Made by a program: the position numbers and the translations under genes
Source: an uncultured Nitrospiraceae bacterium
GTDB lineage: Bacteria > Nitrospirota > Thermodesulfovibrionia > Thermodesulfovibrionales > UBA6898
Length of the DNA: 64,000 nt
NCBI GenBank assembly: GCA_963811165.1
Contig: CAWEQH010000004.1
Coordinates: 704,001-768,000, forward strand
Direction of reading: 5' to 3'
Shown here: positions 36,015-42,298 of the stretch, in pieces
Position numbering within the stretch: position 1 is the first letter of the stretch
How the letters are laid out: every line of letters begins with the position of its first letter
The notes under the pieces: model-generated
Databases searched by the model: none
What the model was told of the DNA's origin: nothing
The model's input: only the letters and a program-made list of their open reading frames with translations

Positions 36015-36224
36015 ATTCAACCTATATCAAGTGATATTTTGACTCCATTCGAGTCCGTCCTGAAAAAAAAGGCAGTACCTGATTCCCGCCACGCGGATTA
36101 TATGCAACAACCGCATGGCATCCACGTGCTTCTCGGTCACAGCGATGTAAGGACAACGATGATCTATACCCATTGCGTTCCGAGCAGGACCGTAAAAGAG
36201 GCCAAGAGTCCTCTGGATTTCTGA
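36015..36224 (+). pseudogene. intI: integron integrase remnant (large internal deletion)
   Basis: C-terminal box II LLGHSDVRTTMIYTH...KSPLDF fused in frame to ~30 upstream codons (IQPISSDILTPFESVLKKKAVP...Y); divergent from the attC array. Confidence 0.85.
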
Positions 36225-36501
36225 GAAGGCCTTTTTTTTGCGCAGGCTACCGCCGTTTATTGCAGCCCTCCACTGCTGCGGCAATATCGATTGACTGAAA
36301 ATCCCCTTTTCTTCTGAGACCCGCATTTCTGATAAGGCAAGCGTGAAAGAGGGAACAGGCCCCCGATCCGCTCAAATCATTGTAAAGCAGTGAGTAGTGA
36401 GAAGTAAATAGTCAAAAAAGATGTGAAAGGTGAATCGTGCATTGTAACAGGACAGACATACGACATAATGTCTTTTGATGGTATTATTTGTGTTCTTTTG
36501 T

Positions 36502-36697
36502 CCCCTTCGAAAATTTAGGTTTGCGACCGAGGCCGAAGGTGAAAGATTTTAGGCTGTCTGAACCCGCAGCGGGTGAGTTCCTAAAATCTACTGAGGCTGA
36601 ACGAGCAGACCGTGAATAATTTTCGTCGGGGCGGATTCTTTACGTTAGCTTGCTTGGGCGAGCAAGAAAGGTAACTGGGGTGCGGGGCAACGCCCCG
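36502..36697 (+). repeat. structured ~200-nt non-coding element, copy A
   Basis: Nested stems CCCCTTCGAAAATT/AATTTTCGTCGGGG and AGATTTTAG/CTAAAATCT, then GTTA..TAAC hairpin and CGGGGCAACGCCCCG. Confidence 0.8.
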
Positions 36698-36794
36698 TCT
36701 CTTTATCTTTTATTTGGAAATTTAAAATAAAGTCTAAATCAACAGATGCGGAGCTTCTTTCTTACCAGCAGGCGACACTCCGCACCCGGGAAAA

Positions 36795-36994
36795 GGGGCT
36801 CCGCCCCTTATACCCCGGGCGCTTTTCATTAATGCGAATGAAAAGTGCCCAAAAGCACGCACCCCACGGAAAATCCTTTTCGCTTTGCTCGGTCGGTCCG
36901 GCTAAATTTTAGAAACTCGCCCCGAAGCGGGACTCAGACAGTCTAAAATTTCTTACGCCGGCCCTCGGTCGCAAATCGGGATTTTCCAAAGGGG
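36795..36994 (-). repeat. structured ~200-nt non-coding element, copy B (inverted)
   Basis: Reverse complement shows CCCCTTTGGAAAATCC/GGATTTTCCGTGGGG, AAATTTTAGACTGTCTGAG..GAGTTTCTAAAATTT, GGGGCGGAGCCCC. Confidence 0.8.
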
Positions 36995-37044
36995 CCCCCT
37001 TTGAAACAAACACATTTATAAACCGTGGCTGCATTTCAGTAGTT

Positions 37045-37246
37045 CCCCTTCGAAAATTTAGGCGAGCACGGTTGCCCGGAGGGTTAAGCATTTTCCCATG
37101 TTCGAGCACCGATGTTAGGGGCGAGTTGGAAAATGTACCGAGGACAACCGGCGCAGCCGTTAAGAATTTTCGTTGGGGTGCACTTCTTTCGGTTACATTT
37201 CTTGGAGCAAGCAAGAAAGGTAACTGGGGTTCGGGGCAAAGCCCCG
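37045..37246 (+). repeat. structured ~200-nt non-coding element, copy C
   Basis: CCCCTTCGAAAATT/AATTTTCGTTGGGG, CATTTTCC..TGTTCGAG..GAGTTGGAAAATG, GCAAGAAAGGTAACTGGGG, CGGGGCAAAGCCCCG. Confidence 0.8.
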
Positions 37247-37253
37247 GTGAAAA

Positions 37254-38297
37254 CTACAACTTGATACCCGGCCAGGTTTCAATCGGCTCCGTCGACCTTA
37301 CGACATGCATCCCGGCGTCTGCAAATCTCCGAAATGCCGCGTCGGCCAAATCCGTATAGTCCATAACGCCTGGAACAACAACGGGCGACGTGCAGTCTTC
37401 GAGGAGGTAGACTTTTTCTACCAGCTTCCTGTCCCGGGCCAGAATATCTTCGAGCAGGTCGGCGATGGTCCAGGCGACGCAGTGGCTCTTGGCCTGCCCG
37501 GCGATGACGACGGCATCGAATTCAAGGAGCTTCTTAAAGAACTTCTCGCTCTTTAGGCCGAGTTCCTCACCTTTTGGCCCTTCGCGCACCTCCGGCCCGA
37601 GTACGGAATAATGCTCGGTAAAGGGCCGGTCGCCCTTGACATGAAAGTCAGGCTGACTGTACCGCGCCACGCTTTGGAAAAAAATCGCCTCTTCAACGGA
37701 TGCAACCAGTGCATGCCCGATGCCGCCCAACATGCCGTGGTAAGGCCATATGGTGAGATCGTATTTTCCCCCCTGTCTGAGCTTCCTTGTGTAGTGTAAA
37801 AGGAGCTGCTGGCCCTGCTCCTGGTCGACCGGGAAAATGAAGCAAAGGTCAGGGTTGAATTTCCAGACACCCCTTGCCACGTCCTCCTCCGTTACCAGGG
37901 TAAACGGTGCGGGAGGTTCCCCTTTATCATCGACGAGAAAGATAGGATGGAATATCTGCATGGTGTTATGGGTGTCCATTGTGGGGCAGATCTGGGTTAT
38001 CGCGCCGAGGTTGCGGTAAATGAATTCGCACAGTCTCTTGTTGTCGTCGACCGCACCCGTGCCCGAGCGCCCGGCAACGTAGAGTTCGAAGCCGGGGATG
38101 CAAAAAGAATTTTGCACGTCGACCGCAACGAGACATATTTTGAACCCATCGTCGCAGGCGGGTCTTATCCGCCGCAGCCTCGCCCACTCTCTTGCCTCCC
38201 GGTCTCTTTCGAGATAGGGTACCCTCCACGTCTTATCGACATTGGCTTTATCGAAGTGGGGTGGGAGGGGCAGGGGGGAATACGCTTCCTTCGGCAT
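37254..38297 (-). CDS. isochorismatase/nicotinamidase-family hydrolase
   Basis: [34 protein letters not shown]. Confidence 0.88.
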
Positions 38298-40294: not shown

Positions 40295-42298
40295 ATGAAA
40301 TTGTTCAGGAAAACGGAGGAGCCTCAGCCGCCCGATCCGATTATCGAGGAGCTGAAAAATAAGCTTTCCGCCGCGGTCCTTCCGCCTCGTGCCGAAGAGG
40401 TCGCCCTTAAGGAACTGGAAATGCTCGGGAGGACCAACCCCTCGACCTCAGAATATACGATAGGGCTCGCCTATATTCAATATCTCGTCTCACTCCCCTG
40501 GAGTATAAGGACGGAGGACAACCTCGACATAAAGAGGGCCGAGAGAATACTTGATGAAGACCACTACGGGCTGCATCCTATAAAAGAGCGGATACTTGAG
40601 CACCTCGCGGTCAAGACGCTCAGGATGAACCGAAGGCCGCAGCTGCTGGTCGTCGACGACGAGGAGGTGGCCAGAAGAAACCTTGCGCATATTCTTTCAA
40701 AAGAGAACTATACGGTCGATACCGCCGCTAATGGAGTCGAGGCGCTGGCGAGGCTCAGGGAGTCTTCATACGACGTGATCCTTACGGACTACAAGATGGA
40801 AAAGATCGGCGGGATGGAGATACTCGAAAAGACGAAGTCGATGGCCCCCCAGACTGAGGTCATCATGATCACCGGCTATGCCGCCATAGACACTGCCGTT
40901 GAGGCGATGAAGAAGGGCGCGTTCCATTATTTGGTCAAGCCCTTTAAACTCGATGAAGTCAGGGAGGCGGTAAAACAGGCGCTCGCAAAGACGGACCCGC
41001 AGAAGGAGATGAAGGGGTCGGTCCTTTGTTTTGCAGGCCCGCCGGGCACCGGCAAGACTTCTATGGGGATGTCGATCGCGCGCGCCCTGGGGAGAAAATT
41101 CGGCGGGATATCCCTTGGCGGAATAAAGGACGAGGCCGAGATCAGGGGACATAGGCGGACGTATGCCGGCGCTATGTCCGGAAGGCTCATCGAGGAGATA
41201 CGAAGGTCCGGCACATGTAACCCCGTCCTCATCCTGGATGAGCTGGACAAGATCGGTTACGACTTCAAGGGCGATCCTGGTTCGGCGCTGCTTGAGGCGC
41301 TCGATCCGGGCCAGAACTGCCAGTTCATGGACCACTACCTCGACACGCCTTTTGACCTTTCACGGGTGATGTTCATCATCACGGCAAACGTGGCCGATAA
41401 CATTATGGACCCCCTCAGGGACAGGATGGAGGTCATAGAGTTTTCAGGGTATACGGAAGAGGAAAAGGTGAGGATCGCCTCGGAGTTCCTTGTCCCCAGG
41501 CAGATACGGGAGACGGGCATCTCTGTGTATCCGCCCGAGTTCTCCAATGAGGGCCTCTTCAGGATCGTCCAGGAATACACCCACGAGGCGGGCATACGGG
41601 ACCTTGAAAGGCATATCGCCTCGATCTGCCGAAAGATCGCGAGAGATTTTGTTCAGCATGGGGTGGGTGCCCAGTGTATCACCGTAGACAGGGACCTGGT
41701 CGAGGGGTTCCTCGGGCCGAGGAAATACTATTTCGAGACGGCCGAGGAAACGGACAGGGTCGGTGTTACCACGGGGCTTGTCTGGACCGAGGTGGGCGGG
41801 GAGATTATTTTTGTCGAGGCCCTGAAGATGAAGGGGAAACAGGAATTGATCCTCACCGGTTCACTGGGTGGAGTAATGAAGGAATCTGCCCAGGCTGCGC
41901 TGAGCTACGTAAGGAGCAATGCGGGCAGGTTTGGTATCGATGAGGATTTTTTTGAAAATCACGATGTGCATATCCACGTGCCCGCCGGTGCGATACCGAA
42001 GGACGGGCCTTCCGCGGGGGTAACGATCGCATTGGCACTGATTTCTCTTCTTACGGGAAGGCCCGCAAAGAGGTCTGCGGCCATAACCGGAGAACTTACC
42101 TTAAGCGGCAGGATACTCCCCGTCGGGGGAATAAAGGAAAAAATATTGGCGGCGCGAAGGGCAAGGCTTAAGACCGTGATTTTGCCTTCCAAAAATAAGG
42201 TCGAGATAGACATCCTTCCGGAAGAGGTGAAGGGAAAACTCGAGATCGTCTTTGCCGAGACGGTGGAAGACGTGGTCGGTTCGGTATTGATGAAATAA
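40295..42298 (+). CDS. lon: Lon (S16) protease lacking the N-domain, with a receiver domain inserted in the AAA+ module
   Basis: [15 protein letters not shown] - REC (VVDDE, D, MITG, KP) - [34 protein letters not shown]. Confidence 0.92.

Follow-up and report, generated by a model that had tools for sequence, protein, structure and literature searches.

A folded, multicopy repeat of about 200 nucleotides with a portable core in an uncultured Nitrospiraceae bacterium

Results

The stretch analysed here, called the window, is 64,000 nt of the genome of an uncultured Nitrospiraceae bacterium (contig CAWEQH010000004.1, positions 704,001 to 768,000 of the forward strand). It contains three copies, A, B and C, of a non-coding element of about 200 nt with a conserved fold. 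The initial annotation, made from the letters of the DNA, had described three elements in alternating orientation, and their positions were borne out. R1, a covariance model made from the three copies, placed them at most 3 nt from the earlier coordinates: copy A (type 1) at 36502-36699 on the plus strand with 211.9 bits, copy B (type 2) at 36792-36993 on the minus strand with 203.8 bits, and copy C (type 1) at 37045-37248 on the plus strand with 184 bits. The R1 search of the window gave no match besides these three. The z values of their single-sequence folds against dinucleotide shuffles were –2.9, –4.67 and –4.33, respectively. The mean column identity of A, B and C is 77%. RNAalifold gave 64 pairs for the three copies, and a change on both sides was already seen in 16 of these. 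The common architecture, with every stem and loop that had been named before, was present in the alignment and in the RNAalifold structure.

The fold of the unit consists of a rod of 130 nt, then a second hairpin, and then a GGGGC-N3-GCCCC clamp. From its base, the rod is built up by a CCCC/GGGG outer stem, a GAAAAT/ATTTTC stem, a middle stem, an inner A/T-rich stem, a TGTYYGAR...YGAGTT loop and a small apical hairpin. In copy A, the rod (domain 1) occupies approximately 36502-36631, the second hairpin approximately 36635-36681 and the GC clamp hairpin 36682-36698. This clamp is a terminator-like hairpin with a weak T run. The tip of the rod, of about 64 nt, is called the core. It comprises a 5-nt GUNAA bulge, a 10-bp A/U-rich helix (P4), an internal loop, CUGUYUGAG/YGAGUU, in which tandem G-A pairs are possible, and an apical hairpin that varies. 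The distal half of P4 is hypervariable in sequence yet always paired. R2, a covariance model of the core only, matched the core of copy A at 36533-36597 on the plus strand with 65.5 bits (G000:C4:740533-740597, G000 being the window's genome). There, the module is made up of a GUGAA bulge, the 10-bp A/U-rich P4, an CUGUCUGAA/UGAGUU internal loop and the apical hairpin. The cores of copies B and C are located at 36896-36962 and 37077-37144. Copy B starts with GGGGCCCCTTTGGAAAATCCCG, and its 3′ end is an GGGGCGGAGCCCC hairpin followed by TTTT.

The copy number in the whole genome (3.66 Mb, 95% complete) was determined with the same covariance model. R1 gave 25 matches, composed of 17 full-length copies (110-212 bits) and 8 partial ones. 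Two diverged types of unit are found in the family, mostly arranged as head-to-head doublets. Type 1 starts with CCCCTTCGAAAATTTAGG and its 3′ end lies in the clamp. Type 2 starts with GGGGCCCCTTTGGAAAATCCCG, has a second hairpin unlike that of type 1, and carries after the clamp a TTTT(T) run and an extra GCGGAG...CTCCGC hairpin. In a doublet, a type-2 unit on the minus strand faces a type-1 unit on the plus strand with the 5′ ends 49-85 nt apart. This arrangement is complete at five loci of the genome, B-C among them, and two further ‘single’ copies carry the remnant of a doublet partner. The A-B-C cluster and a cluster at C1:364.7-365.4 kb are segmental relatives, which have in common the spacer, a remnant of the clamp of A and a separate repeat of 138 nt. 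The similarity among the copies ends exactly at the boundaries of the fold. In this genome and its close relatives, the units begin with CCCC... and end with ...GCCCC, without terminal inverted repeats (TIRs). The neighbours of the copies in the window's genome are unrelated housekeeping genes, namely those of LptD, a ClpA/B-type ATPase, MatE, GatA/B, aconitase, HisF, carbonic anhydrase and CoaD. Over all genomes inspected, the element has no consistent gene neighbour; polysaccharide loci and toxin-antitoxin pairs adjoin it in Bacteroidota and single accessory genes do so in genome G083.

The selection acting on the element was assessed by pairing statistics on 65 copies from the window's genome and more than 20 related genomes. 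In this alignment, which was fitted to the model and hence leans towards structure, 92.8% of the pair cells form standard pairs, compared with 36-57% after a shift of the 3′ partners by 1-3 columns. Compensatory changes were detected in 53/64 pairs, and the observed values were reached in none of 500 shuffles. The stem covariation claimed from the three copies was thus confirmed in the larger set. The pair cells hold 318 G-U/U-G against 56 A-C/C-A combinations, and one helix is mostly U-G. The opposite strand is therefore unable to form an equal structure, and an explanation by double-stranded or cruciform DNA is ruled out by this asymmetry. The core was also analysed alone, in a plain MAFFT alignment of 48 cores in whose selection the stems had played no part. 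Here, pairing holds for 96.6% of the cells and drops to 16-55% on sliding, and compensatory changes occur in 7 of the 10 P4 pairs. The fold of one strand, and not the sequence, is under selection. The strand asymmetry is compatible with RNA and with single-stranded DNA (ssDNA) alike, and so with both forms that the initial annotation had offered, a non-coding RNA or an ssDNA-folding substrate.

The element was present in 19/24 genomes of the same family and in 2/16 genomes of the order's other families. Among these 40 relatives, the number of R1 matches per genome ranged from 0 to 38, with 38 in G025, where contig ends cut through 6/32 matches. The intergenic site between the ClpB and MatE genes carries a doublet in G000 and G002 and is empty in G003 and G004, where the gap measures approximately 125-155 nt. 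The presence and absence are clear in this comparison of filled and empty sites, and the flanks are too diverged to define exact junctions. Positional orthologues of G000 and G002 are 71% identical, whereas their flanking genes are 79-82% identical; 14 compensatory pair changes and 6 pair losses separate these orthologues. They are mosaics of type-1-like and type-2-like segments, and therefore segments have been exchanged between copies. Direct repeats of 3-6 nt around single units were not above chance at any offset in 62 copies, apart from the trivial CCCC/CCCC, and thus no target-site duplication (TSD) was detected for them. Around the doublets, no TSD was visible by eye. An IS30-family element, with a 329-aa HTH_38 + rve transposase and inverted ends of about 23 bp, is inserted in a type-2 copy (G000:C4:613069-614334; L030:6070-7335). 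It was rejected as a parent of the family, as it splits the type-2 copy, whose 3′ remainder lies past the insertion. Searches of the window's genome, which is 95% complete, gave no IS1380 transposase. The TnpB nuclease domain (PF07282) and the reverse transcriptase (PF00078) had no match either, in a search that did not extend to IscB and IS110. An omega RNA or a retron RNA was rejected on these zero matches together with the housekeeping nature of the neighbours.

In order to look for the core elsewhere, a degenerate pattern was written for the unpaired motifs of the rod tip with the stems left free. It matches 15 places in the window's genome, all of them within true copies, and at least 124 stretches in contigs representing one genome per species. 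Eighty pattern loci were taken up and 3 were left out before R1 was applied. Among the matches listed, R1 confirmed the core in 70 of the 77 loci tested, the other 7 having no R1 match. Full-length R1 matches were, among the matches listed, from metagenome-assembled genomes (MAGs) labelled Nitrospirae, Nitrospirota or Thermodesulfovibrionales. The core was also found in many Desulfobacterales, Mesonia sediminis, a Bacteroidales MAG, three Peptoniphilus species, Cloacimonadota, Patescibacteria, Spirosomataceae and a Gammaproteobacteria MAG. With R2, it was detected in 27/151 genomes sampled from the window's phylum, including 20/27 of another family, with up to 26 copies, and in 24/101 genomes of the order to which G043 belongs, where the copies number as many as about 50. 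Among 2.9 million viral contigs the pattern had 6 matches, and a blastn search of plasmids with the Desulfobacterales form had none.

The carriers of the core differ between lineages. Two Desulfobacterales MAGs carry the core at the apex of elements of about 190 bp with 20-bp TIRs (TGAYNNNNNCGTAAAAAGTC), which are MITEs (miniature transposable elements with inverted repeats). TIR ends of this type number 120 in one of these MAGs and 86 in the other. Direct repeats of 4-6 bp flank 6 of the 9 copies that were scored with both TIRs. In G044, an element of 1893 bp with the TIRs of the MITE encodes a 557-aa DDE transposase. Of the NCBIfam families, IS1182 fits this protein best (E 1.4e-49, with a score short of the curated cut-off); in Pfam, it matches DUF772 and DDE_Tnp_1_6. 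The 1893-bp element does not contain the core, as the best R1 match with filters off had an E value of 0.16. Next to it lies a 69-bp element (L266:2119-2187, G044:C170), which is little more than two TIRs and represents the same backbone without the core. Because the insertion sequence (IS) with the same TIRs lacks the core and a TIR-only mini-element exists, the core is cargo and not a relic of the IS. Sister families in the window's order have another carrier: in three of their genomes, the core lies in an element of about 215 bp with different TIRs (ATCCAGCGATAAGGAT). As in the window, a second hairpin with a YUUUYUU/AARAAAR stem comes after the rod in Bacteroidota, Cloacimonadota and Patescibacteria.

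Two further arrangements of the core were observed. The 13 copies of Mesonia sediminis are all confined to about 170 kb (G042:C41:606-782 kb, L217-L222), 12 of them on one strand. They are part of a mosaic with no fewer than four further families of short repeats, in a zone of genes for polysaccharide synthesis and ParDE/MazEF pairs. In G083:C4 (L282:5388-17363), six copies lie on the same strand, and about 190 nt upstream of several of them is a degenerate, GC-rich partner in inverted orientation. Between the copies lie single genes of accessory type (SDR, DUF1810, BBE oxidase, SRPBCC, glyoxalase-like and DUF188), which gives the locus the look of a cassette array with no integron integrase nearby.

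The element did not correspond to a catalogued RNA. No Rfam 15 family reached its gathering score in the window, and the region 36300-37400 gave only three chance matches with E values of 4.6-9.2. Fifteen core loci from other phyla had no Rfam match at E ≤ 0.01. ARAGORN found neither tRNA nor tmRNA in the window. In agreement with the first assessment, the copies are not tRNA, CRISPR or attC, the attC sites of this genome looking different, and they cannot be assigned to a named family. Examined by eye, the core fits none of the K-turn, loop E, T-loop, dif/Xer and ssDNA-promoter readings. A full-text literature search, which included PMC11602168 and PMC6006769, did not bring up a description of the element. 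It is thus treated as undescribed within the literature searched.

Other features surround the three copies. A promoter-like site at 36460-36487 on the plus strand (ACGACA-16-TATTAT with TG upstream; 9/12 matches in a consensus scan) lies about 15 nt 5′ of copy A. The A-B spacer (36700-36791) is 85% identical to C1:365204-365281 and includes a GCGGAG...CTCCGC hairpin at 36748-36783; this hairpin is seen 3′ of four type-2 copies. The B-C spacer (36994-37044) is the 51 nt between the 5′ ends of B and C, with a palindromic TTTATAAA at its centre. The clamp of copy C ends 6 nt from the stop codon of a convergent 347-aa gene (37254-38297, minus strand). Upstream of copy A, a repeat of another kind with 138 nt occupies 36235-36372. 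It is 92.8% identical to G000:C10:704942-705078, downstream of an intact intI gene, and 89-97% identical to C1:365305-365444, where it adjoins the C1 doublet; several copies occur in G002. At 36120-36218 on the plus strand lies the remnant of an integron-type tyrosine recombinase, about 32 C-terminal residues of what had been called a dead integrase. It matches positions 282-313 of TIGR02249 (E 8.9e-6 in a whole-genome search) and positions 148-168/172 of Pfam Phage_integrase (E 0.0057). A 118-nt stretch including it (36107-36224) is 79-84% identical in G004 and G005. Farther downstream, at 40295-42298, the window encodes a fusion of a Lon-type protease with the receiver domain of a response regulator (Response_reg + AAA + Lon_C), which is an uncommon combination of domains.

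The window's genome has two paralogous RAYT-like genes of the HUH/Y1 kind (L033:6436-8024 on C8 and L034:11845-12492 on C4), with 48% identity between them. They match NF047646 with E values of 1e-16 and 2e-18, both scores being below the family cut-off, and the HUH and Y motifs are visible in the alignment. One of them is directly downstream of a LexA/UmuD-like S24 peptidase gene. The genome also has a genuine integron, with an intact intI gene at C10:705661-706617 (TIGR02249, 395.9 bits against a cut-off of 265; locus L285, G000:C10:704161-708117) and a divergent array of about 14 small same-strand open reading frames (ORFs) at G000:C10:707316-716069. The sites between these ORFs are canonical attC sites of 70-100 nt, GCTTAAC...GTTRRRY (RYYYAAC...GTTRRRY), unlike the element. 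The array looks like a sedentary chromosomal integron.

Discussion

Our conclusion is that A, B and C belong to a family of selfish repeats with a constrained structure, at the centre of which is a portable core. The first description of the copies as non-coding, multicopy, structure-constrained and apparently mobile is thus supported. We give slightly more than even credence to the joint reading, in which the element is a multicopy selfish or mobile repeat of about 200 nt with selection on the fold of one strand, a portable core and a role of this core at the RNA level. In this process, the unit would be transcribed, either from weak promoters of its own or by read-through. The core might then be the RNA platform of a host factor that is widely conserved, and alter the processing or stability of the transcript in the manner of REP, ERIC and Correia elements. 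Such an effect on transcripts could keep the resident copies folded. In other lineages, the core is the cargo of miniature transposons with TIRs and TSDs; the DDE transposases that move these are encoded in IS copies from which it is missing. An action at the RNA level appears more likely than one at the ssDNA level. The conserved features, namely the specific bulge, the internal loop in which tandem G-A pairs are possible and the helix whose distal half is variable yet paired, point to catalysis or to recognition by a widely conserved partner.

Several observations weigh against this reading. The units of the window's genome have yielded no TIR, TSD or autonomous parent, and the partner protein of the core remains putative. 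G-T pairs are tolerated in ssDNA too, so that the strand asymmetry suits either molecule. The cores from other phyla were chosen by a pattern that fixes the unpaired motifs, and hence the invariance of these motifs is overstated. Parts of the stretch occur in 20 of the 23 listed runs of public RNA libraries, and no run contains half of its sampled words; contigs from RNA libraries cover 73-95 nt of a look-alike copy, without transcript ends. No promoter motif is conserved upstream of 62 copies. In most type-1 copies, no U tract follows the clamp, and the sequence next to most clamps is rich in A. Where genomes have mainly single copies, those in tandem intergenic regions are sense in 16 cases and antisense in 2 (8:1 in G025, 5:1 in G083 and 3:0 in Mesonia), a count that uses crude ORF calls and comes partly from two one-strand gene clusters. 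This bias fits a transcribed sense RNA, and a replication-linked ssDNA process would give an equal bias. The window's genome itself, with its doublets, has 5 sense and 6 antisense copies.

The main rival is a REPIN-like mechanism, because RAYT-like genes lie close to copies, the doublets are inverted and TSDs are missing. In such a case, a RAYT-type HUH/Y1 or another single-strand enzyme would recognise the hairpins and copy units or doublets of ssDNA without TIRs and TSDs. Inverted doublets are a hallmark of REPIN/BIME according to PMC6006769, and they occur in the window's genome (five complete, two as remnants) and in G083. The strand-specific fold and the GC-rich terminal hairpin agree with this mechanism, and the orientation bias also fits a targeting of the lagging strand. 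Each of the two RAYT-like genes is 0.97-1.17 kb from a copy, and the proximity is similar in G002, G003 and G006. However, their scores stay below the cut-off, no REP-like repeats were found directly beside them, and PF01797 (IS200-type Y1) has no match in the window's genome at a genome-wide E ≤ 0.001. The phyletic fit is poor: of the 40 relatives, 14 carry element and RAYT together, 7 carry the element without RAYT, 6 have RAYT without the element, and 13 are devoid of both; the family search found no RAYT in G025 with its 38 matches, nor in G018 and G030. REP sequences carry a 5′ GT[AG]G guide tetranucleotide before a short GC-rich palindrome, as given in the same article (PMC6006769). In the element, this guide is absent, the clamp hairpin being preceded by GGGGTNN, and the units have about 200 nt instead of 20-40 nt. 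In Desulfobacterales, the core moves in a DDE-type MITE. Considering these points, the REPIN-like mechanism is unlikely, though it keeps more weight than the other rivals. Independent trans-acting small RNA genes, with their own promoter and terminator and duplicated by ordinary recombination rather than as mobile DNA, are somewhat less probable again. In favour of such genes, the promoter-like site of copy A has an extended –10 and the 3′ hairpin of this copy resembles a terminator, a GC hairpin and then TTTT(T) close the type-2 copies, and the structure is kept at a fixed locus across species. The combination of promoter-like and terminator-like sites is limited to copy A, however, and the lack of a conserved upstream motif speaks against such genes. 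They would not explain that similarity ends exactly at the fold ends, that copy number varies from 0 to 38 with contigs breaking inside copies, or that the core resides in transposons with TIRs and TSDs elsewhere; an unpaired hypervariable ‘seed’ region is absent.

Hammerhead and twister motifs are often carried by repeats, and the core might be a small self-cleaving ribozyme of this kind. It is a multicopy, widespread module of no fixed gene neighbour, with about 25 conserved unpaired nucleotides around two helices, and its tandem G-A next to the apical helix (UGAG...CGAG) resembles the stem II junction of the hammerhead. The third helix or pseudoknot of a known class is missing, the positions essential to the hammerhead differ, and the Rfam ribozyme families gave no match even at E ≤ 10, so that we regard this as quite improbable. 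The least probable explanation, which is largely refuted, is that the copies are attC-like recombination sites of an integron or an attC cluster without integrase. It was suggested by the integrase remnant 280 nt upstream of A and by the intact intI gene in the genome; the same-strand copies between single accessory-type genes in G083 and the Mesonia copies that precede toxin-antitoxin pairs would also suit it. The real cassette array, with its canonical sites, does not match the element, and none of the 25 R1 matches falls in the C10 intI/cassette array. The element has no paired inverse core sites RYYYAAC/GTTRRRY, which in attC stand at the foot of a hairpin of 57-141 nt; the sole GTTRR-like string, GTTAA, is an unpaired bulge. 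Units of about 200 nt in inverted doublets (with a rod of 130 nt), housekeeping genes next to most copies, and filled and empty alleles that differ by the repeat and not by a gene also speak against it. No integrase was seen beside the copies at the 9 other loci scanned in the genome. A functional tie to the dead integrase, just downstream of which the initial annotation had placed the cluster, is not supported.

Returning to the selfish repeat with its portable core, we tentatively propose, with clearly less confidence than in the joint reading itself, that the core belongs to a new and widespread class of structured RNA, either a platform for a host factor or a small ribozyme. It would have been captured repeatedly by unrelated backbones (the IS1182-like MITE, the second TIR MITE and the TIR-less doublets) across at least six phyla, and might ease the tolerance or use of its carriers by the host. 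REP, ERIC and Correia repeats are as a rule confined to a lineage, and their folding is regarded as a side effect of palindromy. A conserved internal module of specific bulges and loops that crosses phyla in different backbones and is missing from the parent IS would be expected only of a module with a function of its own. If this holds, a tractable motif of 64 nt would be available for a new RNA-protein or catalytic activity, and the element would be a clear case of a transposon with functional non-coding cargo. R1 and R2 can also be applied to annotate dozens of copies per genome in MAGs of Nitrospirota and Desulfobacterales, whose assemblies are broken by these repeats.

The element can be compared with several known systems. 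With the hammerhead core it has a resemblance only, in tandem G-A pairs that abut a short GC helix with flanking CUG...GA and GA motifs; it differs by two helices instead of three, by the essential nucleotides and by the lack of an Rfam match. As in integron attC sites, the fold is conserved over the sequence, a single strand folds, bases are bulged, the terminal hairpin is variable and an integrase remnant is nearby. In contrast to them, R′′/R′ inverse core sites are lacking, the units are twice as long and they lie outside the cassette array of the genome. Omega RNAs of TnpB/IscB, IS110 bridge RNAs and retron msr-msd are likewise structured RNAs of 150-250 nt tied to mobile DNA, whereas the element has no TnpB nuclease domain or reverse transcriptase in its genome, no steady adjacent protein gene and no unpaired guide. 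The likeness to REP/BIME and the REPIN-RAYT system is closer. The element is intergenic and multicopy, folds into hairpins, has the inverted doublet as its basic unit and no TSD, and is inherited vertically and persists with a copy number that varies between relatives, with RAYT-like genes near two copies. On the other hand, its units of about 200 nt have three domains in place of a 20-40-nt palindrome and no GT[AG]G, the RAYT-like genes are not directly flanked by it, RAYT was not found in 7/21 element-bearing relatives, and the core crosses phyla where REP families are lineage-specific. With the Correia/NEMIS, ERIC/IRU, RUP and BOX MITEs, it has in common that short non-coding intergenic repeats fold as long rods. 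In both the Desulfobacterales and sister families of the Thermodesulfovibrionales, TIR MITEs that have short direct repeats do carry the core, whereas the units of the window are without TIRs, TSD and parent IS. We know of no cross-phylum internal cargo among the Correia, ERIC, RUP and BOX families. In the element, the conserved part differs from that of bacterial MITEs in being an internal cargo, missing from the parent IS and common to at least two unrelated TIR backbones and to several phyla.

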